Assembly (NCBI GenBank): GCA_016839585.1
Contig: JAEOTZ010000050.1
Span: forward strand, 1 to 64,000
Source of the DNA: Promethearchaeota archaeon
GTDB taxonomy: Archaea > Asgardarchaeota > Lokiarchaeia > Sigyniarchaeales > SOKP01
DNA: 64,000 nucleotides
Direction of reading: 5' to 3'
The notes under the pieces are model-generated. The model ran no database searches. It saw nothing but the letters and a program-made list of their open reading frames with translations, and was not told where the DNA came from. Position numbers and translations under genes: made by a program. Below are positions 7,366 through 26,781 of the stretch, one piece after another (the stretch's first letter is position 1; the number at the start of each line of letters is the position of its first letter).

Positions 7366-9417
7366 TTGACTACGACTAACAAAACTAAATGGGTCATCAC
7401 TTCAGCATGGCCTTATGTGAATGCTATTCCACATTTAGGAACTATGATTGGAAGTGTTTTATCTGCAGACATATTCGCTAGGTATCTCAGATTAAAAGGA
7501 GATGAAGTTGTTTTTGTTTCAGGTTCAGATTCCCATGGAACTCCTGTAGCTGTAGCTGCTAAACAGCAGAATGTAGCTGTGGAAGAATTAGCTACGAGAA
7601 ACCATGAAATCACTAAAAATTTGTTTAAAGAATGGAAAATTTCGTATGATAATTATACAATCACCCATAATCCTACTCATATTAGATTTGTTCAAGAGTT
7701 TTATCTTGATGTTCAAAAAAATGGATATATCTTAGAAAAAGAGATTGAATCACTATATTGTGAAAAAGATAATCTCTTTCTCCCAGATAGATTTGTAGAA
7801 GGGATATGTCCGCATTGTGGTTTTGAAGATGCGCGAGGAGATCAATGTGATAACTGCCAAAAGTTATTAACACCTCTCGAATTAAAAAAACCTCGATGTG
7901 TGATATGTGATAATACTCCTGAAATTCGAAAGACAAAGCATTGGTATTTGGATTTTCCAAAATTACAAGATCGTTTGAAAAAGTTAATAGAAGATAACAA
8001 GATCATCCCTCAAAATGCAAGGCAGATGTGCTTAAATAGTATTGCAGAAGGACTTCCTGAAAGAGCAATTACGAGAGATTTAGAATGGGGTATTCCGGCA
8101 CCATTTAAAGGAGCTGATGATAAAACAATATATGTATGGTTTGAAGCTGTTTTAGGTTATGTCTCTGCTGTAAAGGAATGGGCAGATAAAATCATTAATC
8201 AACCAGAGAAATTTGATTACTTTTGGAAAGATGATAATACAAAAACAGTATATTTTATTGGAAAGGATAATATAATTTTTCATTTAATTGTATTTCCCGG
8301 CTTATTAATAGCTTACAATGATGATAAAACCGAGAAAGAGAAATTAGTCCTACCTTACAATGTTTCATCTACTGAATTTTTAATGTATGAAAATGATAAA
8401 TTTTCAAAATCTAGAGGAGTTGGAATATGGATTGATGAAGCACTAGAATTAGCTCCACTAGATTATTGGCGTTTTAATTTGATTTATAATAGACCTGAAA
8501 AAAGTGATACATCATTTCTTTGGTCTGAATTTGCCAATAACATCAAGACTTTAAATGATGTTATTGGAAATTTTATCCATCGAATATTGACGTTTTTAAA
8601 TAAACAATTCAAAAGTACAATTCCTAATAGGATAAGATTTGATGATCTTGATAAAGAATTTGTGACTAGGTTAAAATCAATAGGCAATTTAGTAGGTGAA
8701 TTATTAGACAATTTTGAATTGAGAAGAGCGTTAAGAGAAATTGTTAATTTTGGAAGAGATGGAAACGTTTACCTAAATAATAAGGCACCCTGGCATTTGA
8801 TAAAAAAAGATAAAAATGTTGCTGGACATGTTTTTAATTTATGTGCCCAAGCTGTTTATGCCTTGGCAATTTTATTAGCTCCATTCATTCCTGATACATC
8901 TGTAAAAATTCTAGATTATTTAAATATTCCAGAAAAATTAAATCAATTGTCATGGAATAGTATAAATGAGAATGCTCTTAAACAAGGGCATAAAATTAAA
9001 GTTCCAATGCCAATTTTCCAAAAATTAGAGATAAGTGAATTAAAAGAAGAACTAAGTCGAATTAGAAAGAATAAAGAAAAACAAGGTGTTAAAAATTTGG
9101 TTTCTTATGAAGAATTTAAAAAATTAGATATAAGGGTTGCTTTAGTTGAGAAAGTTGAAAAAGTTCCAAAAGCAGATAAGCTATATAAACTCTCTGTTGA
9201 TCTGGGAACTGAAAAAAGAACATTAGTAGCTGGATTAGCAGAACACTATAAAGCTGATGAATTAATTGGTAAAAAGATTGTTATTTTAACTAATTTAGAA
9301 CCAAGAAAATTAAGAGGAATTTTAAGTCAAGGTATGCTACTTGCTGCTGTGGAAGGTGATAAAGTATCTATACTAACACCGGATAAAGATTTGCCTTCCG
9401 GTGCCAAAGTTGAATAA
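7366..9417 (+). CDS. metG: Methionyl-tRNA synthetase with C-terminal tRNA-binding domain
   Basis: AWPYVNAIPHLG (HIGH), Zn knuckles, KFSKS (KMSKS), C-terminal OB domain (LEPRKLRGILSQGMLLAA); TTG start after GAGGTGA. Confidence 0.97.
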   Translation: MTTTNKTKWVITSAWPYVNAIPHLGTMIGSVLSADIFARYLRLKGDEVVFVSGSDSHGTPVAVAAKQQNVAVEELATRNHEITKNLFKEWKISYDNYTITHNPTHIRFVQEFYLDVQKNGYILEKEIESLYCEKDNLFLPDRFVEGICPHCGFEDARGDQCDNCQKLLTPLELKKPRCVICDNTPEIRKTKHWYLDFPKLQDRLKKLIEDNKIIPQNARQMCLNSIAEGLPERAITRDLEWGIPAPFKGADDKTIYVWFEAVLGYVSAVKEWADKIINQPEKFDYFWKDDNTKTVYFIGKDNIIFHLIVFPGLLIAYNDDKTEKEKLVLPYNVSSTEFLMYENDKFSKSRGVGIWIDEALELAPLDYWRFNLIYNRPEKSDTSFLWSEFANNIKTLNDVIGNFIHRILTFLNKQFKSTIPNRIRFDDLDKEFVTRLKSIGNLVGELLDNFELRRALREIVNFGRDGNVYLNNKAPWHLIKKDKNVAGHVFNLCAQAVYALAILLAPFIPDTSVKILDYLNIPEKLNQLSWNSINENALKQGHKIKVPMPIFQKLEISELKEELSRIRKNKEKQGVKNLVSYEEFKKLDIRVALVEKVEKVPKADKLYKLSVDLGTEKRTLVAGLAEHYKADELIGKKIVILTNLEPRKLRGILSQGMLLAAVEGDKVSILTPDKDLPSGAKVE

Positions 9418-9455
9418 AAGTTATGAGATTTTTCTTTTTTTTTCTTTTTTTAAAC

Positions 9456-10700
9456 TTATAATTTTAAGGAGAATAAAGGATTCAAGCGAGCAATAATTTC
9501 TCCAAGGTCCAATTGGATTGTTTTGAGAATTATATCACGCCCTCTATACTCAAATTGTAATTCTCTAACATTTCTAATAATTTTCAATCTACTTATATTT
9601 GATTTTAAAGAAGTAACAAAATATCTTTGATCTTTATATTCAAGTACATCTTGAACTTCTACAATATCAGACAAAAGATAGCCACCTCCGTGAGGTAATA
9701 TATCCGAATTCTGTAATAAATCTAAAAGTTCTAATTTTTCTGCTCTGTCTAAAAGATTTATATTCCTTAATGTTGTTTCAGTTAAATTTTTTTTACCTTT
9801 AAATAGATAAGCAGCAATATCTGGCCTAAGAGTCGTTGGAAATATATTAGAGGTTATAATTTCACAATTAGTGTCTGTACAATTGCTTCCTAAATACATA
9901 TTATTATAATCTTTTAGAAATTGATGGGGTTGATTACAAATAACCTTATAGCCATAATCAAACAAGTTATCAGCTATAATTTCTCTTTTTTTACTTGAAA
10001 ATTCTAGAGCTTTATTATTAAAATTTGAATATTCCGTTGCATCAGTGTCTAATAAAATGAATTGCTTTCCAAATTTAGTATCTTCTTCAATTGCTTTTTC
10101 TTTTAAGGTTTTCGATTTATCTACATAAAGACCTATCCCATATTTATCATCTCTAAATTCCGGAGCAGATCCATGAATCATAATTATATAAGGAGGAATG
10201 TCTATATCTGATAGATTTCTTGTTTCTAAACAATTAATAAAATGATTAGATATTCCATAATCCCAATTGATTAGGATATCATTATGGTAAAGTTCTTTAG
10301 ATTTTATATCATCGATCTTTTTGATTATTTCATATGGATCTGGAACCTCATTTATACCTCCAATGAGTATTCCACAGCAATTAGGTTTTATATTAAGAAA
10401 TATCAATTTTTCCTTGCCAGATCCCCAATTTAATCTTCCTCCATATCCTAAACCAGAGTTCCATCGAAAATTATTTCTTGAAATTGTCTCGTCTGGTGAA
10501 GAAATAAACGTTGTTTTAGGTTCAAATCCATATCTCTCTTGAATAATTTGAAATTGTGCTATTCCATATTTCATATTAGCTTTACACAATTGAGATGCTC
10601 CATCATTTAACCCAGTGGAAAAAATGAATTCTTGTGCTCTTTGTAATAAATCTGTTTTTGATAACTCCGAAATGTTTTGATAAAGGATTCTTGAGCCCAT
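9456..10700 (-). CDS. Divergent RtcB-family (RNA ligase-like) protein
   Basis: Ordered RtcB-like motifs SPD, NCCG, SNHF, IMIHGS, PHQ, LPHGGG, YRGRD, ARLNPLFSLK. Confidence 0.65.
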   Translation of the reverse strand: MGSRILYQNISELSKTDLLQRAQEFIFSTGLNDGASQLCKANMKYGIAQFQIIQERYGFEPKTTFISSPDETISRNNFRWNSGLGYGGRLNWGSGKEKLIFLNIKPNCCGILIGGINEVPDPYEIIKKIDDIKSKELYHNDILINWDYGISNHFINCLETRNLSDIDIPPYIIMIHGSAPEFRDDKYGIGLYVDKSKTLKEKAIEEDTKFGKQFILLDTDATEYSNFNNKALEFSSKKREIIADNLFDYGYKVICNQPHQFLKDYNNMYLGSNCTDTNCEIITSNIFPTTLRPDIAAYLFKGKKNLTETTLRNINLLDRAEKLELLDLLQNSDILPHGGGYLLSDIVEVQDVLEYKDQRYFVTSLKSNISRLKIIRNVRELQFEYRGRDIILKTIQLDLGEIIARLNPLFSLKL

Positions 10701-14710: not shown

Positions 14711-16111
14711 TTATTTATCAGGATGAGCTACAATACTTTTTAATGGATTAACGATTGCCTCTTTAATCATAGAATAAAATTTCTTTCTAAATTTTTCATT
14801 ATTTTCAATTACTGGTATAAGCTGCTCATTCATTTTTTTTGCCATTTCATCATTTTGTGGAAACGTATCATAGAATCCCTGTTTTTCATAATACTTATCA
14901 TCTGCCCGAAATATTAATCGAAGTCTACTATAAACAGCATCACGAAAAAGTAATTTTCCACCTACACTAAGATAAGTTTCAGGTTGTATATAATTAGAAT
15001 TAGAAAAACGAATTAGTTGGTGAGCACAATTCTGAAGCACCGAATTGATTTCAGCAGAATCCCCAAATTCGTCGGTGATAAAATCAACACAATTAGATCC
15101 TTGAGACTCCAAATACGCTTGAAAGATCTGTTTAATATTTGGAATTTGACTAAGAGGACCCGAAATAATAAAGGCAATTTGCTTTCCTATTAAAGTTGGA
15201 ACATGATTATTAAAAAAAGCTCTGTCAAAAACCATTTTCCATCGTGAAGATAAATATCTATCTTTTATATTTCCAGCAAAAACCAAAATATCTGAAGGTT
15301 TAAGTTTTTGGTTCCAAAAAGCCATAAACTCGTCTTTCTCTTTATAAACACATTGGTTATCATACCCACACTGACAACAACCAAGACATCCTCCTTTAAT
15401 ATTAATATCATAAATATTGATAATTTCAATATTTTCAGTGAATGAATTGCGAAATGTGTTAATCATCTTCCCTAAATTTGTCCTATCATCAGTTGAATCT
15501 GTTATAATAAGGATCTTTTTACCTTCAGTACTAATTTTATTTTTTTTAACCTCTATCTTATTCGGGTTATAACTAAAATTCCGGTAATTAAGAGGTGGAA
15601 AATGTTTGGAGGTGGGTATATTATTTTCAATTGCATAAAAAAAGTTTTTTGCAAAATGAATTAACTTAGTTCTATTTTCAGATCTGAATAATTCATTCAT
15701 ATCAGGAGAAAATTTTCCTACGTACTTCATTTCGAGATCATCACAAATAGCATGCAAATAGTTATGAGCTGTATGGTCAAAAAAGTGAATTGAGGTCGTT
15801 AAAGCTACAGTATATTTATCTTTAAAAGCACCTTTGGCATTTCTTTCAGTAATAAGTTCAATGAATCGTTTATATTGAGATGGTACAAGTAAAACATATA
15901 CAGGAGTCCCCCAAATGATTCCATCTGATGCTTTAATTTCTTCGATAATCTCGTAAAATTTTTCTTGATCCCTATCAAGATGTTTAATTTGCTGAGCTAC
16001 ATTTAAGATTTTTAATTCATGCTGGGGAAATTTTTTCTGAATGTATAAGATATATTGCATAGTAACACTTAGATCACCTTTAGGGCTTCCATTTAAAACT
16101 ATAATCTTCAT
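14711..16111 (-). CDS. Tandem flavodoxin-fold NAD(P)H-dependent FMN reductase / iron-sulfur flavoprotein
   Basis: LNGSPKG, GTPVY; second domain with the Isf-type motif CLGCCQCGYDNQC. Confidence 0.8.
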   Translation of the reverse strand: MKIIVLNGSPKGDLSVTMQYILYIQKKFPQHELKILNVAQQIKHLDRDQEKFYEIIEEIKASDGIIWGTPVYVLLVPSQYKRFIELITERNAKGAFKDKYTVALTTSIHFFDHTAHNYLHAICDDLEMKYVGKFSPDMNELFRSENRTKLIHFAKNFFYAIENNIPTSKHFPPLNYRNFSYNPNKIEVKKNKISTEGKKILIITDSTDDRTNLGKMINTFRNSFTENIEIINIYDINIKGGCLGCCQCGYDNQCVYKEKDEFMAFWNQKLKPSDILVFAGNIKDRYLSSRWKMVFDRAFFNNHVPTLIGKQIAFIISGPLSQIPNIKQIFQAYLESQGSNCVDFITDEFGDSAEINSVLQNCAHQLIRFSNSNYIQPETYLSVGGKLLFRDAVYSRLRLIFRADDKYYEKQGFYDTFPQNDEMAKKMNEQLIPVIENNEKFRKKFYSMIKEAIVNPLKSIVAHPDK

Positions 16112-16294
16112 TTCTGTAATTCTTCTCTTAAATGATGATTGGTATTTGTTAGAAATAAATAATTAATAAATAATTAATTATTGCATATTCAGTAAATTAC
16201 CTACAATTTTGTATTTTTTAATTTATCATAATAGTATAAATTGTGAAATTTTGGGATGCTTACATCAAAGAGCTTCTTTAAATTCAATATAATA

Positions 16295-17047
16295 TTATTC
16301 AATTGACTCAATATTTTTCCCAACAACTCCAATATAAACAACAGTCTCATTTAGGCCGTCAATATTCAGCAAGTTGTTTAACTCATCATCATAAATTGCA
16401 CCAATTGTACAAGCTCCAAGTCCTAATGCTTCAGCAATTAAGTAAAAATTCTGACCAATATGACCACAATCCATATAAATGTATCTATAACATCTCTGTA
16501 AGTATTTCCATTTTGATCTTTCAATCACAGCAGTCCAAATAAAGTTTATAGCAGAGTTGTATGTCATTTCTTGCCCTAAAGCCCCTTCAGTTACATCATG
16601 ACGGAAATCTCCTTCTTTTAATAACTCAAGGGCATGTTCAGGAATATTATAATGATAAACTCCTTGTTTAAGATTATCAACATTATTTACAACCGGATAA
16701 GTCTCTATAGGATAAAGCCCTCCAGCAGATGGAGTAGTACGAAAAGCATATTGTGGAAAAATTCTTGTAAGTCCTGACATCCCGAATAAAAGTAAGCTCA
16801 TTCCCATCAAAGTCAGTGGTTTATCTTTAAATTCGCGAGTAGAATGGCGATTCTGTATCGTCTTCCAAAAGCTTATTTTCTCGTTAAAATCTGGTTTAGG
16901 TAATTTGATCTTCTTAATAGCATTTGGAAAAGTTTTATATGTTTTTGGTTTATATGCCCAATCTAAATAATGTTTAGGTAATTTACCTCTATAATACTTA
17001 GATTTTTGCTGGAATTTATCGCCAAAATTATCTAAATTCTCACTCAT
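16295..17047 (-). CDS. SagB/ThcOx-family FMN-dependent dehydrogenase (nitroreductase fold)
   Basis: RHSTREF, RTTPSAGGLYP, DCGHIGQN, GACTIGA. Confidence 0.9.
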   Translation of the reverse strand: MSENLDNFGDKFQQKSKYYRGKLPKHYLDWAYKPKTYKTFPNAIKKIKLPKPDFNEKISFWKTIQNRHSTREFKDKPLTLMGMSLLLFGMSGLTRIFPQYAFRTTPSAGGLYPIETYPVVNNVDNLKQGVYHYNIPEHALELLKEGDFRHDVTEGALGQEMTYNSAINFIWTAVIERSKWKYLQRCYRYIYMDCGHIGQNFYLIAEALGLGACTIGAIYDDELNNLLNIDGLNETVVYIGVVGKNIESIE

Positions 17048-17143: not shown

Positions 17144-17380
17144 TTATTTAACTGCTTCGAAATATATATACCACTGTTCATCATCGTCTATGAATTCTGT
17201 TCCGAGATGCTTATGTTTTGTTTTAGCTAAATCTCTAGGAACGCTCTCAGATGCTGGCTTGTAATCAGTAATTACTTTTAAAACTGTGCCCGGTCTCATT
17301 TTCATGAGTTGTTTTTTAGTTTTTAAAGCAGGAACAGGACATACTAATCCGCAGACATTTAATTCCATATCAAATTTCAT
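17144..17380 (-). CDS. tusA: TusA-family sulfur carrier (second copy)
   Basis: LNVCGLVCPVP (CPxP) motif, 78 aa. Confidence 0.88.
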   Translation of the reverse strand: MKFDMELNVCGLVCPVPALKTKKQLMKMRPGTVLKVITDYKPASESVPRDLAKTKHKHLGTEFIDDDEQWYIYFEAVK

Positions 17381-17407
17381 AATTTTTACCTCTTAATTTT
17401 TTTAATT

Positions 17408-19879
17408 TTAATCACACATTAAAGTAAATATTGGTTCATCCATACCTGGTTCAACCTTCATTTCAACCTGCATTAATTGAGCCAATCGAAGTGCCTCATA
17501 TCGTACTTTTTTAGGCTCCAACTCTAAATTTTTTACCATATCGCTTATGGTGCTTGGTCCTTGAAGGGTGATATAATCTAGAACTTGTTGCCTTGGAGCT
17601 TTTACAAAAGTTAAAAGTTCTCTTTTTGATTTAAGATTAATAGCTTTATTCAATTCATCCTTATTCACTTTTCCTTCTTCAAATAAACCTTTTTTAATAG
17701 CATTTTCTACAATTTCTTTACCTCTGTCAGTCCATGCTACTACCGTCGTGTAGCCCTTTTGAGAACCAACCTCACCAGCAGTTAAATCGGAATAAATTGC
17801 TGGAAAATCCTGGCAATGTGAACAGAAGTGATTGCAGCTTAAACAACGACGTGCTTCTTGTAATGCCATTTCTTCATTGAACATCTGATCAATTTCATCA
17901 AAACTCCACTGAATCTCTTCTGTAGCTTCTAATAAAGTCTCCGGCTTTAATGAATAATCTTTTGGAGGTTTTTTTGGACCAGTAAAGAACATTTTATCTT
18001 GTTTATACCGACCGGCTATCATATCTTTACCTTTTAAAAATTTATCAATTGAAATTGCAGCTTCCTTTCCGTGAGCAATCGCTGCGATTGCTACTGCTTT
18101 TGAATTGTTAATTATATCCCCACCAGCAAAAACTCCTGGTATGTTAGTTTCAAAAGTAATTTCATTTATTTTGATTTTATTTCTTTCTTTTTCTAACTTG
18201 TTATCAGTCGCATCATCAATAAGTTCAAAATCTACAGCTTGACCAACTGCTATAACAATTGAATCGATTGGAATTTCGTACTCAGAACCCTCAATTATAT
18301 TTAACGATCGTCTACCATTCTCATCAGGTGAACTCCATTCTGTTTTGTGGCAATTTAACACTAATTTACCATCTTTATTTTGGGTAATTTTAGATGTTGA
18401 AGTTGAAAAGTGATATTGCATGTATTTAAATTCATTTTCTGGAATATCTTTCAAAACTAATTCAAGTTGTTCTTCTGACATGATATCAACAAGATGAATT
18501 TTATCAGCCCCTAATCGGAGGGCAGTTTGTGCAACATCAACTGCAACCGGACCACCCCCAATGATACCTAAGGTTTTTCCCTTGAATTCTTCTTTTTTTT
18601 CCCAATAGCGATATTTTCTATCAATAAGAAATCTAATAGCAACATGAACATCAGGGAGATCTTCTCCTTCTAAATGAAGTGTTCGTGGTTTATATTGACC
18701 TGTACCAATGAATATAGCTTCAAAACCATCATTTTTTAGATCTGCTATTGTCATCTCAGGTCCTAATGCTTTATTAAGTTGAATCTCAACACCTGCATTT
18801 TTTATCATTTCAACATCATAGTCCAATACATAGTTTGGCAATCTAAATTGTGGAACACCAAATCTCAACATACCTCCTGTTTGATCGGCTTTTTCAAAAA
18901 TTTTTGGAGCATATCCTAACTTTGCCAAATAATATGCGGCAGTTAATCCTGCTGGTCCAGAACCGATAATTGCTATTTTTTTACCATTCTTTTTAGATTT
19001 TCCCTTTGTTTTTACACTATTTTTATCACCATGCTTCATTTCCCACTCAGTGACGAATTTTTTCAATTCACGAATAGCTACCGGGTGATCGTCACCAATC
19101 AGGGTGCAACCATGCTCGCATTCATTAGTACAAATTCTACCACAAATTGAAGGCAGTGGATTATTCTCACGAATTAAATCTACTGCCTCTTGATTTTTTC
19201 CTTGCCTTATCAATGATATATATCCTTGGGCATTAACACCTGAAGGGCAACCGTTACAACAAGGTGAACAAATTAAACCCATATCGGTTTGTTCTGTTCT
19301 CATATGAGAATTACAAAATAAACCTATCTTCAAAATTTCTCTATTCATTTGGGTCTCTAAATCGGCGGCACCTCTCATTTCACATGGAACTCCAACTATT
19401 CCTATTGGTTCAAATGTTTCACCCATTAAGTCCACCAATTTTTCGAGAACTCCCGAACGACCATAAACAACTCCTGCTTTTTCTATAACTTCATTAGGAT
19501 CAGATACTTTGTCTGCTTGAGGTTTATCACCAATATCTTGGACCATTACTATATCAGTAAGACTTTTTTCCTCTAAAAGATTTTTAGCTATTGTTGTAAC
19601 AAAACCACCATTAGCTGCCTTTGCCAAAATCTTAGGATCTTTACTTCTCAGGGAATAAATGCCTTTAGGTTGTTTTTGTATAAACTGTTTTTGGATAACT
19701 TGAGGGCAGCTTTGATAGCATTTACCACAATACTGACCATTTCTCTCAAGGATACAATAATCTTTTAATATTGGACGTAGTACTTCCATCTCAATATGTT
19801 TACATGAACCTGCACATAATCCACAGCCTTGACATAACCCAACATCAATAATTTCTTTGTTTAATAACTCAAAACTCAT
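17408..19879 (-). CDS. FrhB-like FAD/Fe-S protein with an inserted GltD/NfnB-like NAD(P)H-FAD module and a C-terminal wHTH
   Basis: N-terminal ferredoxin + AANGGFVTT, VGVPCE, IGLFC; then PCCNGCP..ICGRICTNECE, GSGPAG, GGGPVA, FAGGD, RCLSC; then CSHCQDF..SDLTAGEVGS..GYTTVV; helical wHTH at the end. Confidence 0.8.
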   Translation of the reverse strand: MSFELLNKEIIDVGLCQGCGLCAGSCKHIEMEVLRPILKDYCILERNGQYCGKCYQSCPQVIQKQFIQKQPKGIYSLRSKDPKILAKAANGGFVTTIAKNLLEEKSLTDIVMVQDIGDKPQADKVSDPNEVIEKAGVVYGRSGVLEKLVDLMGETFEPIGIVGVPCEMRGAADLETQMNREILKIGLFCNSHMRTEQTDMGLICSPCCNGCPSGVNAQGYISLIRQGKNQEAVDLIRENNPLPSICGRICTNECEHGCTLIGDDHPVAIRELKKFVTEWEMKHGDKNSVKTKGKSKKNGKKIAIIGSGPAGLTAAYYLAKLGYAPKIFEKADQTGGMLRFGVPQFRLPNYVLDYDVEMIKNAGVEIQLNKALGPEMTIADLKNDGFEAIFIGTGQYKPRTLHLEGEDLPDVHVAIRFLIDRKYRYWEKKEEFKGKTLGIIGGGPVAVDVAQTALRLGADKIHLVDIMSEEQLELVLKDIPENEFKYMQYHFSTSTSKITQNKDGKLVLNCHKTEWSSPDENGRRSLNIIEGSEYEIPIDSIVIAVGQAVDFELIDDATDNKLEKERNKIKINEITFETNIPGVFAGGDIINNSKAVAIAAIAHGKEAAISIDKFLKGKDMIAGRYKQDKMFFTGPKKPPKDYSLKPETLLEATEEIQWSFDEIDQMFNEEMALQEARRCLSCNHFCSHCQDFPAIYSDLTAGEVGSQKGYTTVVAWTDRGKEIVENAIKKGLFEEGKVNKDELNKAINLKSKRELLTFVKAPRQQVLDYITLQGPSTISDMVKNLELEPKKVRYEALRLAQLMQVEMKVEPGMDEPIFTLMCD

Positions 19880-19881
19880 TA

Positions 19882-21117
19882 TTATCCCTCTCTAATTTTA
19901 ATTTCTTTAATTATCCCATTAGAATCTATGCTATATTCTACAAAACCATTCTTATAGGTTCCCTCAACCAGTTCAAAAATATGGGTTTTATAATTATCAA
20001 AATTATCTTCCTCTTTAATTTGCGATTTGAATCCACCAAAAAAGACATTTGATAAATTCATATTACCGGCAATTTTCCGAATTTCATTAGTTACTTTTTC
20101 ATACTGTTTTGCATCATGCATTTCAATTGCTTTCTGTAATTCTTTTTCTAATTTTAACAATTCTTCACGATATTTCTTTGTTTCCTCACTTATTTCAATT
20201 TGATTTGCTTTTTCGTATGGTTCAATTATTTTGAGAGTTAATAAAATCGATTTATCCCCTCCTAATAATCCTGTAATTAATGGCAATTCCTCAATTAATC
20301 TTCCAATAAATACATCTTCTAATAGTTTACCTGAAGATTCAATCCTTCCTTTAGGCAAACCGGATGTAGCTAATGAAAATCTAAAAAAGTTTCCAAGGAT
20401 ATCCGGGAGGCTTTTAGTCACATCATCCTCTTCGTCTGCAAGTTTATCAGTTGCTCCCTTTTCAGAGTGTTCAGTAGCCACTTCAATGTTTCCCATAAGA
20501 GTACCAAACATTCCTAGCATTCTGATACCAGACCTTTCAACCATAGGTTTGCAACCTCTGCAGGGTGTATTATAATCAATACATCGTTCTTGACATTCTT
20601 TAGCAATAAATCCAATACATAGAAATCCTAAATCATTAAAGCAGGTTTCGTTATCAACTAATTCAATTTGCCGGTGAACTGTATCTAGATATTCGCATGT
20701 TGCCCTACGATTACACACTTCACAGAGAGTTCTAAGTTTCGATGGTTTTTCTCCGTTAATTGCAGTTTTTAGTTCCTCAATTTCTCCTAAACATCCATTA
20801 ATGTTTATGGGATTATCAATTAAGTTTTTTAGGGGTGAGATTTCATGACCATGTTGATTTGCTAATGCAAAAATACCTCCCATACTTGTACAATTTCCAT
20901 ATGCGATAACTTTTTCTGAGTTAGCTTTAATTCTTTCCAGATTTTCCTTATTATGTGGTAATAGGTATCCTGTAATTACAGCAACTTGAGTTTTTTCTCC
21001 TTTCCAATTTTGAGGATTAGCAATAAATTGTACTTTATAGCTAGGATCAAGCTTTAGAAGTAAAGATTCGTTATAACACTTATTACAACCATTAAATTGA
21101 AATACTTTAACATCCAT
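19882..21117 (-). CDS. MvhG/VhuG-like [NiFe]-hydrogenase small-subunit homolog with a C-terminal large-subunit-like extension
   Basis: GCNKC, AYGNCTSMGG, INGC, CEVC, CF..LGFLCIG, CRGC; about 150 aa extension resembling MvhA without its Cys motifs. Confidence 0.75.
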   Translation of the reverse strand: MDVKVFQFNGCNKCYNESLLLKLDPSYKVQFIANPQNWKGEKTQVAVITGYLLPHNKENLERIKANSEKVIAYGNCTSMGGIFALANQHGHEISPLKNLIDNPININGCLGEIEELKTAINGEKPSKLRTLCEVCNRRATCEYLDTVHRQIELVDNETCFNDLGFLCIGFIAKECQERCIDYNTPCRGCKPMVERSGIRMLGMFGTLMGNIEVATEHSEKGATDKLADEEDDVTKSLPDILGNFFRFSLATSGLPKGRIESSGKLLEDVFIGRLIEELPLITGLLGGDKSILLTLKIIEPYEKANQIEISEETKKYREELLKLEKELQKAIEMHDAKQYEKVTNEIRKIAGNMNLSNVFFGGFKSQIKEEDNFDNYKTHIFELVEGTYKNGFVEYSIDSNGIIKEIKIREG

Positions 21118-21559
21118 CTTTTATCGTCCCCTCATCTTTAATTGCATTTGATAATCTCTCTACAATGTCTTCAAAATCTCCTACAGCTGTTTCGCCTTCT
21201 GCTGCCCTAGATGTATACTGGTTAATGAATTGATCGCTATATCCTAACTCTTTAAATAACTTTTTCATGAGTTTAATTCTATGCATTGAAAGTATATTTC
21301 CATTAAAAAAGTGGCAAGCTCCTAAACAGCATCCAACACAAGCAACAGCATCTGCCCCATTATTTAATGCATCCATGATCTGAATAGGACCGACTTGACC
21401 AGTACATTGAACTCTTATTATTCTTATTGCCGGATCATATTTCATTCGTGCTACACCTGCAGTATTAGCAGAACCTTGTCCACATTCGTTACACATGAAA
21501 ACAACCACATCCTGAATCTTTCCTTGAATTTCTTCATCCACTACTTCACATTCAGTCAT
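21107..21559 (-). CDS. mvhD: MvhD-type [2Fe-2S] adaptor subunit
   Basis: FMCNEC, IRVQCTG, GADAV..GC..GACHF..GN; ATG overlaps the hdrA stop (ATGA). Confidence 0.9.
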   Translation of the reverse strand: MTECEVVDEEIQGKIQDVVVFMCNECGQGSANTAGVARMKYDPAIRIIRVQCTGQVGPIQIMDALNNGADAVACVGCCLGACHFFNGNILSMHRIKLMKKLFKELGYSDQFINQYTSRAAEGETAVGDFEDIVERLSNAIKDEGTIKDGC

Positions 21560-23586
21560 TCGCAAATAGCACCTCCGCCAGAAACGGCAATTATTTCATC
21601 TAATAATTGTTCATCTCTAAAATTGATTAACTGAATTGCTCCTGTAGGACAAACAGGCATACACATACCACAAGACTTACATGCCACCTCATTTACAGAT
21701 GGAATTCCATTTTCATCTATATCTATTGCTGCCGGAGCACAAATAGTTTTACAAAGTCCACATTTTACACATAAATCATAATCAATTGAAGGAATTAACA
21801 TTTCTCTTTCGATATATCCTTTTACCAATGGAGCCGCTGCTAAAGCCGCAGCACTTCCAGCATGAGCAACAGTCTCAGATATATCTTTTGGTCCTTGTAT
21901 TACACCCGCCAAGAAAATTCCTCCCTTACTACTCAAGGTAGGATTCATTTTTATATGAAATTCTTTTAAGAAACCTTCTTTTGATCTTAGAATATGAAGC
22001 TTCGAACCAAGTGGACCAATTCCCTCAGGAGGAACCATAGCAGCAGAAAGTACAACTAAATCAGCTTTTAATTTTAAAGGAGTTTGAGTTAATGTATCTT
22101 CAACAATTACACTTAAATCACCTGAAATTGGATCTTTAATGATTTCAGATGGTCTTCCGCGAATAAATCTTACTCCAATCTCTTGAGCAGATTTATATAA
22201 TTCTTCAAAATTTAATCCCGGGGTCCTAATATCTATATAACATATAGATACATTAGTATCAGGGTAATTTTCTTTGATAATACGAGCGTTTTTTATAGCA
22301 AACTTACAACATACACCAGTACAATATTGATTGCCAACTTGATCATTTCTACTTCCTACACACTGGATCATAACAACAGATTTAGGAATTTTTCCATCAG
22401 ATGGTCGTAATACTTCACTATTTGTAAGTGATGTTGGAGATAACATTCTTTCTAACTTTAGCTGTGTAATAACATCTTCATATCCTTCTTGACCATAATG
22501 ATAAGGTTCAATTTCAGAAGGATCATATTCATCATATCCTGCAGCAACGATAATCGAGCCAACTTTTACGGTTTTTGTCTCAGGCTGCATAGAAAAATCA
22601 ATAGCCTGAACAGGACATATGTTAATACAGGTATTACACTCAATACAATTTTTTTTATCTCTAATGTATGTAGCTGGTATTGCTTGAGGATAAGCTTTAT
22701 AGATTGCATTTCTCATAGACATTCCCATATCCCATTCACTTGGTAATTCTACAGGACAGTGTGCAGCACATTCGCCACAAGATGTACAATTATCTTTCAC
22801 ATATCTTGGCTTTATTTCAATTTCAACCTCAAAATTCCCTAATGAACCATCAACACTTTTAATTTGAGCATTTGTATAAAGTTTTATTAATGGATGATTA
22901 GCTACGCCATTAGTAAGTGGAGATATTGAACACTGTGGACATTCTAAAGTTGGGAATGTTTTATTTAACCGTGTCATATGACCTCCTATAGTTGATTCTT
23001 TTTCTACTAGATAAACAGGAATTCCTAATTCTGCTAAATCATAAGATGATCGGAGACCAGCAATTCCAGCACCGATAACTAACGCTGCTTTTGTCGTTGG
23101 TATTTTTCTTGTTTCTACATCTTCTAATTTTCTTGATCGATTGACTCCTGCTTCAACCAATCTCATAGCTTTTTGCGTTGCTTTCTCTTTTTCTTTTTGA
23201 TGAACCCAACTGTCATACTCTCTCACATTAACCTGTTGATGACGATGTTTGTTCAATCCAACCTCTTCAATTGCTCTAGCAAAGGTTTTTCCATGCTGAT
23301 TTTTGGAGCATGAAGCTACAACAGTTCTATTAACTCCAAGTTCTTCGATAGAATCTTTGACCATTTGAACTCCTGGTTTGGAACACATAAACATATAATG
23401 TTCAGCTTTCACTACATTTGGTAATGTCGAAGCATATTCCGCAACTTTAGCAACATCCACAGTTCCAGCAATATTATGTCCACAATGACACATGAATACT
23501 CCTATTCGTGGTTCTTCGTTTTCCAATCTTTCAACCTTTTCCCCTAATTGTTCAGTCTTCTTAACTTTTCCTTCTTTAACAGTCAA
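21556..23586 (-). CDS. hdrA: Heterodisulfide reductase subunit A
   Basis: CHCGHNIAG, GAGIAG, KTFPTLECPQC, inserted 2x[4Fe-4S], IQCVGSR, YCTGVCC, QGPKDI, C-terminal ferredoxin. Confidence 0.95.
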   Translation of the reverse strand: MTVKEGKVKKTEQLGEKVERLENEEPRIGVFMCHCGHNIAGTVDVAKVAEYASTLPNVVKAEHYMFMCSKPGVQMVKDSIEELGVNRTVVASCSKNQHGKTFARAIEEVGLNKHRHQQVNVREYDSWVHQKEKEKATQKAMRLVEAGVNRSRKLEDVETRKIPTTKAALVIGAGIAGLRSSYDLAELGIPVYLVEKESTIGGHMTRLNKTFPTLECPQCSISPLTNGVANHPLIKLYTNAQIKSVDGSLGNFEVEIEIKPRYVKDNCTSCGECAAHCPVELPSEWDMGMSMRNAIYKAYPQAIPATYIRDKKNCIECNTCINICPVQAIDFSMQPETKTVKVGSIIVAAGYDEYDPSEIEPYHYGQEGYEDVITQLKLERMLSPTSLTNSEVLRPSDGKIPKSVVMIQCVGSRNDQVGNQYCTGVCCKFAIKNARIIKENYPDTNVSICYIDIRTPGLNFEELYKSAQEIGVRFIRGRPSEIIKDPISGDLSVIVEDTLTQTPLKLKADLVVLSAAMVPPEGIGPLGSKLHILRSKEGFLKEFHIKMNPTLSSKGGIFLAGVIQGPKDISETVAHAGSAAALAAAPLVKGYIEREMLIPSIDYDLCVKCGLCKTICAPAAIDIDENGIPSVNEVACKSCGMCMPVCPTGAIQLINFRDEQLLDEIIAVSGGGAICE

Positions 23587-23587
23587 G

Positions 23588-24499
23588 TTAAATTACCTCC
23601 TCTTCTTTTTCTTCTCCTCCAAAAATGTACTCTCTGCCCATTAATTGGTATTGAAGACCAATAAATTCTTGATCCATACCCATACAATAAGCAGTAAGTT
23701 GAGAAAGATGAATTACTGGATAATCATAATTACAACTTTTATTTTTGTTTAGATAATCTTGACCCGTTTCATATTGTAAGTGACAAAAAGGACAAATGTC
23801 AAGTATAAAATCAGGTTTCACTTCATCAATATTCTTCATTTTTTCTCCAAAAATTCTCATACTTGCTGTTCCATCGTAAGCTTTTACTCCACCACCAGCA
23901 CCGCAACAAGTAAGTTGTTCTTTGAACCTTACAGATTCTATGCCTAACGCCTCAACAAATTCTTCAATAATTGTTGGTCCTTCAGAACTTTCAATTTCTC
24001 TAATTCTAGTTGGTTTTAAGAAATGACAACCGTAATGGATTACTGCTCGAGCATTAACTTTTCTAATAATGACATCTTCTATTCCCCATGGTCCAACTTC
24101 ATAACCTAATACCTCAGCTACATGTCTAACATCAATCGTTCCCCTAAACTCATAATTACCAATAAGTTTCAATTTTTCATTAACTAGTTCTCTATGCTCT
24201 TTGTTTTCTTTTAAATGTTTATTGACCTCTTGAAGCGTGCCAAAACAACCATTACACACAGTTAAAATGTCAGAATCTAACTTTTCGGCAATACATAAAT
24301 TTCTTGCTGCAGCAACCATCCAATCACCTTTATTAAATGATCGGAAGACTCCTGGTGCAGGACAACATGTAGCTCTTTCCATATCTAAAATTTCATATCC
24401 TAGTTTTTGCATTACAAATTTCGTTGATTTTTCAATAGCAGGATATCGATTTGGCATCAAACACCCTAAAAAGAATGCAAATGTGTTTTCTTTAACCAT
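23588..24499 (-). CDS. hdrB: Heterodisulfide reductase subunit B
   Basis: Two CCG domains: GC..TCCPAPG..CNGC and HYGCH..TCCGAGGG..CPFC. Confidence 0.95.
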   Translation of the reverse strand: MVKENTFAFFLGCLMPNRYPAIEKSTKFVMQKLGYEILDMERATCCPAPGVFRSFNKGDWMVAAARNLCIAEKLDSDILTVCNGCFGTLQEVNKHLKENKEHRELVNEKLKLIGNYEFRGTIDVRHVAEVLGYEVGPWGIEDVIIRKVNARAVIHYGCHFLKPTRIREIESSEGPTIIEEFVEALGIESVRFKEQLTCCGAGGGVKAYDGTASMRIFGEKMKNIDEVKPDFILDICPFCHLQYETGQDYLNKNKSCNYDYPVIHLSQLTAYCMGMDQEFIGLQYQLMGREYIFGGEEKEEEVI

Positions 24500-24502
24500 T
24501 TT

Positions 24503-25063
24503 TTAAACTTCCTCCTCTTCTTCCTTTTTTTCCTCTTTAACTGGAGGTAAATCGAACATGTGTTTTTCAATATTTTTTAAATCGCGATCATCTCCCTCTT
24601 GTTTAAACTTAAACGCAGTAGGAGGTAGTTCTTCTAAGCCTAATTCAACCCTTCGTTTTTTTACCTCATCATTTATCGGTACCGCATGTCCATAATTCTT
24701 TAAATAACCTACAACAGCTCTATGATTAGGAGAAATATTCCCTAATTTAGTAGCATAATTTCGCAATTCCATAATTACATCTGTAGGTCTCACATCACGC
24801 GGACACCGTTCATAACATTGATAGCATGTAGTACACAGCCAAATATCAGGATCTTTCAATACCGATAAGTCTCCTAATACAACTTTTCTTACGATAGAAC
24901 GAGTCTTTAAGGCAGTCCATCTACCACTTTCACAACTCGCTGTGCATGTCCCACATTGGATGCACTGCCAAATATTTGATTTTCTTTCAATATTTTTAAA
25001 AAATTCTTTATCAAAATCTTCGTCTGTTTTAAATTCCCTTGGTTCTTCTTCTACATCAGACGT
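24503..25063 (-). CDS. hdrC: Heterodisulfide reductase subunit C (186 aa, probable ACG start)
   Basis: Frame is open 68 codons upstream of the called TTG and contains the first cluster WQCIQCGTCTASC; second cluster WLCTTCYQCYERCP. Confidence 0.9.
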   Translation of the reverse strand, partial: TSDVEEEPREFKTDEDFDKEFFKNIERKSNIWQCIQCGTCTASCESGRWTALKTRSIVRKVVLGDLSVLKDPDIWLCTTCYQCYERCPRDVRPTDVIMELRNYATKLGNISPNHRAVVGYLKNYGHAVPINDEVKKRRVELGLEELPPTAFKFKQEGDDRDLKNIEKHMFDLPPVKEEKKEEEEEV

Positions 25064-25116: not shown

Positions 25117-25533
25117 TTATAGTGAAACTATTCTTCCACCATCGCTCATTTCTAAAAATGCAGCGGCGCCAACAGGATCTTCAGCGATTTCCATTATATC
25201 TTCATGCTTAATTCCCATTAAATCCATAGTCATCTGACATGGAAATAACTTCAAATTACCGTTTTCAACACCGTCCTTAATCAAACCCCATGGATCTTCA
25301 ATTCCAAATTTTTTCATCCTTTTTCTAAATATTTTTGCTCCCATACCTTTCATAGGAGTAGGCATTCCTGCAACTTTAGGTTTAAATTTTTTTGTTAATA
25401 AATTTAAACCCCAAAAAGTAAAGAAAAAATTCATTTTCATATCCATAGCGTCACCTGTTGAACCAAGGATAGCCATCATTGCAAACTTCTCGAATGACTT
25501 ATCCTTTACAATAAAATTTATTGTTTCAGCCAT
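25117..25533 (-). CDS. DsrE2-like sulfur relay protein
   Basis: FFFTFWGL and PCQMTMDLMG..VGAAAFL motifs; ATG after AAGTGA. Confidence 0.85.
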   Translation of the reverse strand: MAETINFIVKDKSFEKFAMMAILGSTGDAMDMKMNFFFTFWGLNLLTKKFKPKVAGMPTPMKGMGAKIFRKRMKKFGIEDPWGLIKDGVENGNLKLFPCQMTMDLMGIKHEDIMEIAEDPVGAAAFLEMSDGGRIVSL

Positions 25534-25683
25534 TTTTTTCACTTTTTTTTAAATTTTTTTTCAATCTTGTATTTTACTTTTAATTATTTGAGTTAACTAA
25601 TTGTTAACCATGACCAATTTTTTTCAATTCAATTTTTAAAAATTTTCTATTTATTTGCTTTCTTACTTTTATGCCCTTACTTA

Positions 25684-26025
25684 TTACATCCATGAAACAA
25701 TCTTTTGTGAATTATCCAATATATCTATGAGTTCATTATATTCAATTGGTTTGATTTTATCATCGAGATAATCAAGAGATATTCCACGTGCTTTTAAATC
25801 TGGAATCATCGCAAAAATAGTAAGGTTTATACTAAAAAGTTCTTTCATTGATTCGGAAACTTTTCCTCTTGAACTACCGCCTATTACTCCGTCATGTATC
25901 AAAATGAATCCAATTTTTGCACCATCAATAGATTGAGTTTTAACAATTGGAAGCAATCGACTTAACTCATTACCATGTCTAGGACTGAATCCGTATAGAT
26001 AAACTATATTTAAATTCTCTGTCAT
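25684..26025 (-). CDS. dsrH: DsrH/TusB-like sulfur relay protein
   Basis: LIHDGV, DLKARGI, IEYNELID, C-terminal VSW. Confidence 0.85.
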   Translation of the reverse strand: MTENLNIVYLYGFSPRHGNELSRLLPIVKTQSIDGAKIGFILIHDGVIGGSSRGKVSESMKELFSINLTIFAMIPDLKARGISLDYLDDKIKPIEYNELIDILDNSQKIVSWM

Positions 26026-26040
26026 TTTTTCCACCCTCCC

Positions 26041-26409
26041 TTAAAATCTAAAACTTGTGTCTGCATTTGCGATTAATTTCGCAAGGTTAACGATATCTAT
26101 AACCTTAAGATTTTCATATTCAACAAAATCCGCTTCAGTTAAACCAGCATCCTCTAAACCAGTATCTAGAATATAAATTTCTAAATCTGAAAGGTCACCC
26201 ATTTCCAATGGTTCCTCGAAAGAATCTACTCCAACCACGGTTGGATCAGCGTTTTTATTTACAAAGTATACAGCATCTCCCATCAAAACTACTTTACAAT
26301 CAATCTCTTCTCCTAAACCCAAAAAACCAGCTGCTAATCTTAGAGCTTCGCGCGCAGAATTTTTACCAACTGGAGATTGATCAACAATAATAACTACTGA
26401 TTTTATCAT
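26041..26409 (-). CDS. dsrF: DsrF/TusC-like sulfur relay protein
   Basis: SPVGKNSAREALR, VLMGDAVY; positioned between dsrE and dsrH. Confidence 0.75.
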   Translation of the reverse strand: MIKSVVIIVDQSPVGKNSAREALRLAAGFLGLGEEIDCKVVLMGDAVYFVNKNADPTVVGVDSFEEPLEMGDLSDLEIYILDTGLEDAGLTEADFVEYENLKVIDIVNLAKLIANADTSFRF

Positions 26410-26412
26410 TTT

Positions 26413-26781
26413 TTAGCCTCCCGTTCCAAAAATTATTAATTTTTCTGATTCTGCTGTCCAATTCGATAGTTCACCTAAACCCTCCTCTTTCGCTCCATCA
26501 ATAAAACATTGCTCTTTCATTCCACAGAGCCCAATCCATGTAGTGCATCCAGCAACCGGAATCTTGTTTTCATTTATGAACTCTTCTAATTTTTTTGGTA
26601 AATTTCTCACAGTAATACCTGTTTCAATATCTTTTTTTATATTATAGACACCACTCCCATAGAAAAAGATCCCCTTAATTTGATTGCCCTTTTCAAGTAT
26701 AGCTTTACTTAATTGTATCAAGGAATCTGTAGCTTCAAATTTATACGGTTCGGTGCTAATCATTATTGTATAAATTAACAT
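26413..26781 (-). CDS. dsrE: DsrE/TusD-like sulfurtransferase
   Basis: EPY, IFFYGSGVYN, active-site-like AGCTTW, GLGEL. Confidence 0.8.
   Translation of the reverse strand: MLIYTIMISTEPYKFEATDSLIQLSKAILEKGNQIKGIFFYGSGVYNIKKDIETGITVRNLPKKLEEFINENKIPVAGCTTWIGLCGMKEQCFIDGAKEEGLGELSNWTAESEKLIIFGTGG

Follow-up and report, generated by a model that had tools for sequence, protein, structure and literature searches.

Flavin-based electron bifurcation has its archetype in the Hdr complexes, and their electron donor decides what an anaerobe lives on. What, then, feeds the Hdr-type proteins encoded in a gene cluster of a Loki-type Asgard archaeon, where the last gene but one specifies a flavoprotein that carries a second flavoprotein in its middle? 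The window analyzed here is the 64,000-nucleotide stretch at positions 1 to 64,000 of contig JAEOTZ010000050.1 (assembly GCA_016839585.1, Promethearchaeota archaeon); its G+C content is about 29%, and the host genome is 3.45 Mb and 99% complete. The gene in question, frhB::gltD, is a single intact open reading frame (ORF) at 17408-19879 on the minus strand, according to the ORF list and translation, and its 823-residue product is called P0001 below. More than 120 clusters of homologues have the length of P0001 at 72-86% identity; they carry the database label "FAD-dependent oxidoreductase" and come from metagenome-assembled genomes (MAGs) named Promethearchaeota or Lokiarchaeota, by which the host is a Loki-type Asgard archaeon. 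We think it fairly probable that P0001 serves as the hydride-input (dehydrogenase) subunit of an electron-bifurcating complex of the Hdr type, one that contains no nickel and is conserved throughout its range in Lokiarchaeales.

An FrhB-type protein interrupted by a GltD-type module

The modules of P0001 are laid out as follows. Residues 1-62 (19694-19879, minus strand like all parts of this gene) form a ferredoxin domain with eight invariant cysteines (C16, C19, C22, C26, C42, C51, C54 and C58), the number required for two [4Fe-4S] clusters; it aligns with its counterparts in 8rja_E, Fsr (7np8/7npa) and 8riu_B, and an NCBIfam FpoF-like match runs across residues 9-192. Residues 63-189 (19313-19693) are assigned by Pfam, the FrhB_C profile and PDB alignments to the FrhB N-domain and the first piece of the FrhB C-domain, which ends with cluster ligand C189 of the motif IGLFC (residues 185-189); this piece carries the FAD loops NGG (90-92) and YGR (139-141) and cluster ligand C166, and has a predicted local distance difference test score (pLDDT) of 80-90 in the structure model (below). 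A module of the GltD/NfnL type, recognized by Pfam Fer4_20 and Pyr_redox_2 and by PDB matches, is inserted at residues 190-685 (17825-19312), after which the FrhB C-domain resumes at residues 686-750 (17630-17824) with C686, C689, D691-F692, SDLTAGEVGS and GYTTVV (CSHCQDF..SDLTAGEVGS..GYTTVV, residues 686-714), again by the FrhB_C profile and PDB alignments. A linker helix and a winged-helix domain (residues 751-823, 17411-17629, with QVLDYI...EALRL at 765-799) close the chain. The order of these motifs is that given in the preliminary description of this locus, made from the letters alone, and the nested architecture it proposed is borne out by the domain profiles.

Pfam FrhB_FdhB_N matches residues 75-146 with 41.4 bits (cut-off 22), which places the N-domain in its family, and the GltD-family domains with both dinucleotide folds are present (Fer4_20 at residues 197-283, 86 bits; Pyr_redox_2 at residues 301-604, 95 bits). 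FrhB_FdhB_C also scores above its cut-off (65.1 bits), but in two non-contiguous stretches, the best of them at residues 668-739. The Pfam accessions are PF04422 and PF04432 for the FrhB/FdhB family and PF14691 and PF07992 for the GltD/NfnB/NfnL family. In a genome-wide scan with the FrhB_C profile, profile positions 4-48 fall at residues ~159-199 of P0001 and positions 78-148 at residues 665-739, so that about 29 central positions (49-77) are replaced. The distance from the GLFC cysteine to CxxCxD is 496 residues in P0001 and 56-62 residues in nine other FrhB-type frames of the same genome; this motif spacing was used for the comparison of paralogues, MAFFT having aligned P0001 poorly to an FrhB paralogue of the genome. 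About 10 residues past GLFC and about 20 ahead of CxxC still fit the FrhB profile.

The boundaries agree with alignments to solved structures. Residues 3-179 of P0001 align to residues 5-200, and residues 685-744 to residues 272-331, of the FrhB-type F420 reductase subunit 8rja_E, and the resumed piece also aligns to residues 192-245 of FrhB 3zfs_C; C189 is the counterpart of Cys134, and C686 that of residue 192, in Methanothermobacter marburgensis FrhB. In that protein the FAD loops lie at 24-QDGG, 71-77 (G73-T77) and 131-138 (I132-F138), the last including Cys134 (PMC3930138). The cluster ligands C166, C189, C686 and C689 of P0001 are invariant among its homologues, and its FAD loops N90-G91-G92, Y139-G140-R141 and G186-L187-F188-C189 are invariant or nearly so. 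P0001 is thus an FpoF/ElpB-type FrhB protein with a 2x[4Fe-4S] ferredoxin domain and an FAD/[4Fe-4S] core. Its invariant cysteines would suffice for five [4Fe-4S] clusters, of which the ferredoxin domain would carry two, FrhB one and GltD two, and the chain could bind two FADs besides. Conservation is even across the modules, with column identities of 0.77-0.91 in a family alignment that is shallow (mostly >72% identity), so none of them looks vestigial.

Do the separated pieces still make one FrhB domain? An AlphaFold2 model of the full-length protein, built from 40 homologues, has a mean pLDDT of 71 and is good in the FrhB, FAD/NAD and tail parts. When it was compared by VIA-align with 48,161 chains, FrhB 9r51_B matched with Z 21.8 and a root-mean-square deviation (rmsd) of 2.9 Å over 205 aligned residues (of 282), which lie between model residues 66 and 759; ElpB 8rvu_E (Z 21.0, 3.2 Å, 207 aligned) and 8rja_K (Z 20.7, 3.0 Å, 202 aligned) likewise span model residues ~60 to 759. 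Since about 205 aligned residues are spread over a span of 690, the N- and C-terminal pieces are modeled as a single compact FrhB domain; the preliminary description had named a failure of the two parts to fold together as the outcome that would speak against its proposal. A Foldseek search with the whole model returned GltD-type matches only. In the stretch C679-x2-C682-x3-C686-x2-C689, ligands for a GltD cluster and for the FrhB cluster stand back to back, which makes short electron-transfer distances plausible at this junction.

Type, coenzyme signature and history of the inserted module

The insert matches NfnA of Thermococcus sibiricus NfnABC (9n5u, E 6e-89), 9bov, StnC (8oh5_C), NfnB and GltD, and VIA-align superposes it on 9n5v_A with Z 24.9 and rmsd 7.3 Å (411 aligned, model residues 205 to 681). 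Its two [4Fe-4S] sites comprise C204/207/208/211, C246/250/254/258, C679/682 and Lys273, and its Rossmann folds carry the invariant loops GSGPAG (306-311) for FAD and GGGPVA (441-446) for NAD; a C-terminal helix with RCLSC follows. Most of the thousands of distant matches cover residues 205 to ~690, through the helix and RCLxC past the flavin domains, and the alignments with 9bov, 8oh5_C and most representatives extend to residues 681-691. NfnB carries the equivalent helix and cysteine element (…EEAQRCLQC) at its N-terminus; as the element is C-terminal in the insert, the insert has the permuted topology of the NfnA/StnC group. The invariant K273 aligns with the Lys of "IRQLKRF" in T. sibiricus NfnA, where NfnB/NfnL has Glu, and in NfnABC this Lys ligates cluster A7, which adjoins the non-bifurcating FAD (PMC12018979). 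NCBIfam NF009410 (PRK12771) matches residues 202-689 to model positions 45-520 of 566, at 384.4 bits (under its cut-off of 516). By these alignments the insert is a complete GltD module of the NfnA/StnC (non-bifurcating) type.

The NADPH-type YRR...EMPA motif of the GltD family is absent from P0001. In the alignments, the V-Y-R-R-x-x-x-E-M-P-A of NfnA, StnC, NfnB and Escherichia coli GltD becomes V464-D465-I466-M467-SEEQLEL, the codons of D465-I466-M467 in place of the 2'-phosphate motif YRR being 18479-18487 (minus strand). LVDIM or near variants with D or E occur in more than 110 homologue clusters, and D465 is at least 90% conserved; the deeper branches (Lokiarchaeum ossiferum, a Sigynarchaeum-like lineage and Promethearchaeum copy 1) have E at this position, and every operon copy has D or E. 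An acidic residue that ends strand beta-2, where the preceding GxGxxA loop is intact, classically marks a site for NAD(H). Because the acidic D465 is combined with an intact GGGPVA loop, the GltD module of P0001 probably uses NADH. YRR is likewise missing from PreT of E. coli (VAREELDEFPA), an NADH-dependent enzyme, which nevertheless retains FPA.

Two Promethearchaeum MAGs contain a second nested FrhB::GltD copy directly behind tusA, and this copy keeps YRRSENELPA (found also in P0128). In one MAG it lies at L065:8106-10549 (plus strand) as two ORFs of 145 and 639 residues, of which the GltD-bearing one occupies 8630-10549; the split is perhaps due to a frameshift, an assembly error or a non-canonical start. 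In the other MAG it lies at L071:265-2709 (plus strand), with YRR..ELPA kept. In a maximum-likelihood tree of the module (28 hand-chosen rows, rooted by moderately supported outgroups), all nested copies form one clade (100/100), within which the copies with YRR (97/91) form the sister group of those of the acidic type, themselves a single clade (100/100), and the nearest outgroups are the YRR modules of P0134 and of a giant HdrA-GltD protein of the same genome (below). Since YRR is kept both in the tandem paralogue and in the nearest outgroup modules, the acidic change is derived and arose once. The replacement of YRR by DIM that the preliminary description had pointed out is therefore a conserved and derived trait, and the tree suggests that the module was inserted a single time, that the gene was duplicated, and that the copy in the operon lost its NADPH signature once. 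The paralogues with D/E and with YRR are a natural experiment on coenzyme specificity. Clustering at 50% left only two further representatives with the whole architecture of P0001. Bacterial GltD modules of the same subfamily (Myxococcota, Rhodospirillales and Deltaproteobacteria; L084-L088), which adjoin hdrA/mvhD, also lack YRR and have CLE or VRG instead.

The gene cluster and its distribution

The gene frhB::gltD is part of a cluster in the order dsrE-dsrF-dsrH-dsrE2-hdrCBA-mvhD-mvhG*-frhB::gltD-tusA (the asterisk marks an mvhG-like gene), which is the same in all loci with enough flank (about 60), including that of the cultured Candidatus Lokiarchaeum ossiferum. In the window all these genes are on the minus strand, and their start and stop codons are tightly coupled. 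The 411-residue mvhG-like product (19882-21117) has a hydrogenase small-subunit Fe-S domain (Pfam Oxidored_q6, NCBIfam VhuG-like) and a C-terminal half without assignment; the stop codon of its gene is 2 nucleotides ahead of the frhB::gltD ATG. Pfam and NCBIfam identify mvhD (21107-21565), hdrA (21556-23586), hdrB (23588-24499) and hdrC (24503-25062), the last with an apparent ACG start (25062) 7 nucleotides behind GGTGA, no ATG, GTG or TTG being present ahead of its first CxxCxxCxxxC motif. The dsrE2-like, dsrH, dsrF-like and dsrE-like genes (25117-26781; Pfam DrsE_2, DsrH and, twice, DsrE) keep this upstream position in about 45 loci, and at the promoter of the cluster is a divergent gene for an Lrp/AsnC regulator. 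On the other side, tusA (17144-17380, 78 residues, Pfam TusA E 3e-19) begins 27 nucleotides past the frhB::gltD stop codon; being shorter than the 80- and 100-residue cut-offs of the ORF lists, it was found by reading the sequence. It is downstream in nearly all loci and, at 71-99% identity, more conserved than any other gene of the cluster.

Among 400 genomes of the phylum, full-length copies of frhB::gltD are confined to the window's own order (families f1, f3 and f4), with one outlier: an 84% identical copy in a genome of another family of the phylum (G073:C137:2056-4533), for which an error in binning or recent transfer may account; none of about 240 other genomes from outside the order has one. 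The gene is also missing from some closed genomes of the window's genus. A sediment RNA-seq library (X9) holds short contigs with 99-100% identity to 17163-17412, 18487-18637 and 18797-18947; they are assembled contigs in which carry-over of DNA is possible, and thus give a weak hint of expression, while stretches that they leave uncovered carry no information.

Farther downstream, at 14711-17047 on the minus strand, lie a gene for a 250-residue nitroreductase-family protein and a 466-residue gene with a duplicated FMN_red/flavodoxin-like fold; a nitroreductase gene is near the cluster in about 14 loci. In the interval between frhB::gltD and the nitroreductase gene, a scan of the bacterial type, which is of little value in an archaeon, gave no intrinsic-terminator-like site and no more promoter-like sites than expected by chance.

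The winged-helix tail

Modeled alone from 28 sequences, the tail has a pLDDT of 84 and the topology H-H-H-beta-beta. Its structure matches 1ku9_B (Z 10.9, 2.0 Å, 64 residues), 6uvu_B (Z 10.9, 1.7 Å, 62 residues) and the PKZ Zalpha domain (rmsd 1.0 Å over 57 columns), and the 50 best VIA-align matches and the Foldseek matches are all winged helices, so in the model the fold that the preliminary description had read from the letters is certain. Pfam matches to the tail are below threshold (HVO_A0114, E 0.0019, 18.4 bits with a cut-off of 27.6; HTH_9, E 0.028). The tail is present in all family members at 35-85% identity, and R763, R793, L797, R798 and L799 are invariant. Comparison by hhalign of the tail with the N-terminal extensions of two other proteins of this genome, a 928-residue FrhB-NfnB fusion and an 848-residue HdrA-MvhD protein (below), gave nothing significant (probabilities of 5% and 3.5%). 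It is more likely that the winged helix is a docking or assembly domain than that it is a regulator.

F420 and other redox proteins of the genome

The genome contains cofH, cofD and cofE above their cut-offs and many FrhB paralogues (at least nine), several of which adjoin mvhD genes; F420 is thus a working cofactor in this organism. A genome profile search for Fno/NpdG (TIGR01915) found none above cut-off, but a divergent candidate (83.6 bits versus 149.8) means that absence is not established. In FrhB, the subdomain of residues 128-188 forms one wall of the F420 access channel (PMC3930138), and, since C189 and C686 of P0001 correspond to Cys134 and residue 192, the insert replaces the middle of this subdomain. 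The preliminary description had called the FrhB part a former F420 module rewired to NAD(H). The interruption of the channel-wall subdomain would agree with "former"; the invariant FAD and cluster motifs, in an organism that makes F420, would not, and the FrhB FAD of P0001 may be a second port for F420(H2).

Other loci of the genome (G000) combine the same building blocks. The FrhB-NfnB fusion of 928 residues (L093:2745-5531, on contig C59, minus strand) consists, end to end, of an N-terminal extension, a ferredoxin domain, an intact FrhB and a canonical NfnB with YRR; its gene adjoins a 290-residue NfnA-like gene (Pfam DHODB_Fe-S_bind) and a Pfam Mpt_N gene (methylene-tetrahydromethanopterin dehydrogenase, N-terminal), and it may be an F420-linked Nfn. 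A giant protein of 1648 residues (L094:2982-7928, on contig C26, plus strand), whose gene is preceded by that of a 401-residue Fer4+CCG protein, has a GltD module with YRR, an FAD domain resembling that of HdrA, ferredoxin motifs and, at its C-terminus, MvhD; it looks like an Asgard example of the "type III HdrA", in which GltD is inserted into HdrA. The HdrA-MvhD fusion of 848 residues (L093:9257-11803, plus strand) has an N-terminal Pfam DUF7347 extension and is followed by genes for hydrogenase small and large subunits, so that a genuine Mvh-type locus is present in the same genome. Four of its 13 loci of the MvhD/FlpD family have two in-frame TGA codons each (C90:33126-33494, C47:150607-150975, C79:46989-47357 and C45:36079-36444); these homologues may contain selenocysteine, and three of them adjoin FrhB paralogues.

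What does the nested protein do?

In the reading that we favor, the complex would consist of HdrABC, MvhD and the MvhG-like Fe-S subunit together with P0001, and would work with the DsrE/DsrEFH/TusA sulfur carriers. NADH would reduce the GltD FAD, from which single electrons would pass over the two GltD clusters to the FrhB cluster and the clusters of the N-terminal ferredoxin domain, and onward through the cluster chain of the MvhG-like subunit and the [2Fe-2S] of MvhD to the bifurcating FAD of HdrA. HdrA would then send one electron to HdrBC, for a disulfide or persulfide on the relay, and one to ferredoxin; the path may also run in reverse. We draw this route from NADH onward by analogy. 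ElpB and FdhB oxidize F420H2, whose electrons reach HdrA's bifurcating FAD by way of clusters and MvhD/ElpC (PMC12350162), the F420-reductase subunit of the Ethanoperedens carbon monoxide dehydrogenase (CODH) is anchored by its N-terminal ferredoxin domain (PMC11493965), FrhB docks onto the hydrogenase small subunit FrhG (PMC3930138), and a GltD domain inserted in HdrA has been proposed to be a direct NAD(H) port (PMC12054007); on these precedents P0001 is read as the donor arm of the Hdr complex.

Several points weigh against this assignment. P0001 has lost (E)MPA besides YRR, whereas the NADH-dependent PreT keeps EFPA, so the nucleotide site may be altered more deeply than by a simple switch from NADPH to NADH. 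The full-length model is weak at the Fe-S loops, with pLDDT below 50 at residues 1-63, 190-209, 245-268 and 634-691. The physical association of P0001 with Hdr is a prediction from gene order. Judged from textbook potentials, NADH (-320 mV) with a persulfide-type acceptor leaves little drive for the reduction of ferredoxin.

How far each half of P0001 is catalytically alive is what separates several of the other explanations. The FrhB half could be a scaffold and Fe-S adaptor that has lost its reactivity with F420 and docks the NADH module on the MvhG-like subunit, which would be a sub-variant of the Hdr donor role. The insert replaces half of the lid subdomain (PMC3930138), the neighboring gene encodes a homologue of the hydrogenase small subunit, FrhB's natural partner, and FrhB folds without F420 chemistry exist (HCAR, 5dqr_A, Z 16.8, rmsd 3.4 Å, 207 aligned); a mere adaptor would not need NGG, YGR, GLFC and SDLTAGEVGS, which are invariant or nearly so, nor does the fit to the FrhB profile on both sides of the insert (above) favor it, and we regard this variant as a serious possibility that stays short of even chances. 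The converse, that the NAD(P) site is dead and the GltD module persists purely as a relay of FAD and Fe-S centers or for the binding of some other ligand, would explain why YRR and (E)MPA are both lost and why the NAD domain is the part most unlike the YRR paralogue (32% identity). It agrees poorly with the invariant GGGPVAxD pyrophosphate loop, the D/E kept at the end of beta-2 across ~54% sequence divergence, and a column identity in the NAD domain (0.83) equal to that of the other modules, and we give it little credence. If both FADs are active with three Fe-S clusters between them, P0001 could be mainly a dual-port F420H2:NAD+ (or NADH:F420) oxidoreductase that brings the pools of F420 and NAD into equilibrium, either by itself or as a side activity within the Hdr complex; its single chain contains two complete flavin sites whose motifs are invariant, the FrhB part is conserved as well as the remainder, and the organism makes F420, has its other FrhB proteins and no Fno/NpdG above cut-off. 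Yet the insert takes out the center of the F420-channel subdomain, F420 and NAD are nearly isopotential, so that a five-cluster, two-flavin machine would be a costly substitute for Fno, and the separate FrhB-NfnB fusion with its NfnA-like partner is better suited to the task. The gene, moreover, is never alone but always within the hdrCBA-mvhD-mvhG-like cluster with its DsrE/TusA carriers, and in solved relatives the N-terminal ferredoxin domain anchors FrhB-type subunits to partners (PMC11493965), which makes the free-standing F420/NAD transhydrogenase of the preliminary description unlikely; we hold the dual-port oxidoreductase as a whole to be improbable.

The tail invites a different idea, also raised in the preliminary description, namely that P0001 moonlights as a redox-sensing transcription factor whose winged helix binds DNA under control of the cofactor state. 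Its fold is near those of MarR, ArsR and Zalpha domains, the basic residues R793 and R798 of helix 3 are invariant and K790/K791 nearly so, as would fit nucleic-acid binding, and the annotation of one JGI homologue includes "predicted transcriptional regulator". Nothing beyond the fold has come to support this proposal: there is one such domain per chain with no evidence of dimerization, an operator was not found, a dedicated Lrp/AsnC regulator is encoded divergently at the cluster's promoter, and winged helices also make protein and RNA contacts (ESCRT-II, SelB, RPC62 and TFE are among the matches of the tail). The DUF7347 extension of the 848-residue Hdr-type protein may be similar to a winged helix and would, if so, hint at a role in assembly. 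A regulatory function strikes us as a distant prospect.

The Hdr donor role can also be taken one step further. Both hydride ports might operate in the one nested subunit, NADH at the GltD FAD and F420H2 at the FrhB FAD, coupled by bifurcation at HdrA to ferredoxin and to a protein-bound persulfide that DsrE/TusA deliver, in a nickel-free complex of Lokiarchaeales, with the duplicated YRR copy taking NADPH in some genera; we offer this extended scheme tentatively and are inclined to doubt it. If it is true, such a two-port machine would add a new class to the electron-bifurcating enzymes and would be a central hub of redox metabolism in the cultured organisms most closely related to eukaryotes, and an hdr/mvh-type cluster of this kind could, under annotation at the level of domains, be mistaken for a hydrogenase-linked Mvh-Hdr. 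The cluster bears on Asgard metabolic models that assume an H2-evolving Mvh-Hdr. Its presence in the cultured Lokiarchaeum ossiferum and in the Promethearchaeum MAGs makes the prediction testable.

Comparison with known systems

P0001 departs from both of its parent families in some of their profiles and motifs: its FrhB_C match is non-contiguous, YRR is absent and PRK12771 scores under its cut-off. Among proteins of known function, ElpB resembles it in having an FrhB core (FAD and [4Fe-4S]) with extra clusters, in being encoded with hdrABC and an MvhD homologue, in the fold match given above, and in feeding the bifurcation site of HdrA from a two-electron donor. ElpB differs in lacking a GltD insert and a winged helix, in its donor, which is F420H2, in its scaffold, which is a truncated FdhA (ElpA) and not MvhG-like, and in belonging to methanogens that use CoM-S-S-CoB. 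FrhB of FrhABG (3ZFS/4OMF, 9R51; PMC3930138) shares the fold, the FAD loops and the four Cys ligands, and at our locus, as in the pairing of FrhB with FrhG, the neighboring gene encodes a homologue of a hydrogenase small subunit; in FrhABG, however, the 128-188 subdomain that lines the F420 channel is uninterrupted, the partner is a real [NiFe] hydrogenase, and the N-terminal ferredoxin domain, GltD module and tail of P0001 are all absent.

For the insert, the best match in both sequence and fold is the NfnL-like domain of NfnA/StnC (NfnABC of the Bfu type and StnABC; 9N5U/9N5V, 9BOV, 8OH5; PMC12018979), which has the same permuted topology, Lys cluster ligand and non-bifurcating FAD feeding a chain of clusters, but which has YRR, uses NADPH, and is joined end to end with NuoG/Fdh-like domains and not inserted. 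Within the same organism, the 928-residue fusion likewise unites FrhB and GltD/NfnB in one chain; it differs in its end-to-end order, in an intact FrhB_C (profile 2-148), in its canonical NfnB (N-terminal RCLQC, YRR and EMPA), in a GltD part only 38% identical to that of P0001, and in its different neighborhood of NfnA-like and Mpt_N genes. Type III HdrA is comparable in that GltD is spliced inside a subunit of an Hdr complex as a proposed direct NAD(H) port (PMC12054007), and the module of the Loki giant protein, at 39% identity, is among the closest outgroups of the insert; there the host domain is HdrA, FrhB and winged helix are lacking, and the Loki giant keeps YRR.

By analogy, then, P0001 would work like ElpB/FdhB as a donor to Hdr and like the NfnL-like domain of NfnA/StnC as a port for NAD(P)H. 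In the literature searched, which left out most subscription journals, GltD is described in HdrA, but we met with no account of an FrhB that carries a GltD insert. P0001 suggests how an Asgard order swapped the input of a [NiFe] hydrogenase for that of a pyridine nucleotide (and perhaps F420), by a whole flavoenzyme spliced into the Fe-S loop of the adaptor. The insertion of a GltD module, so far described for HdrA, has thus occurred in FrhB too.

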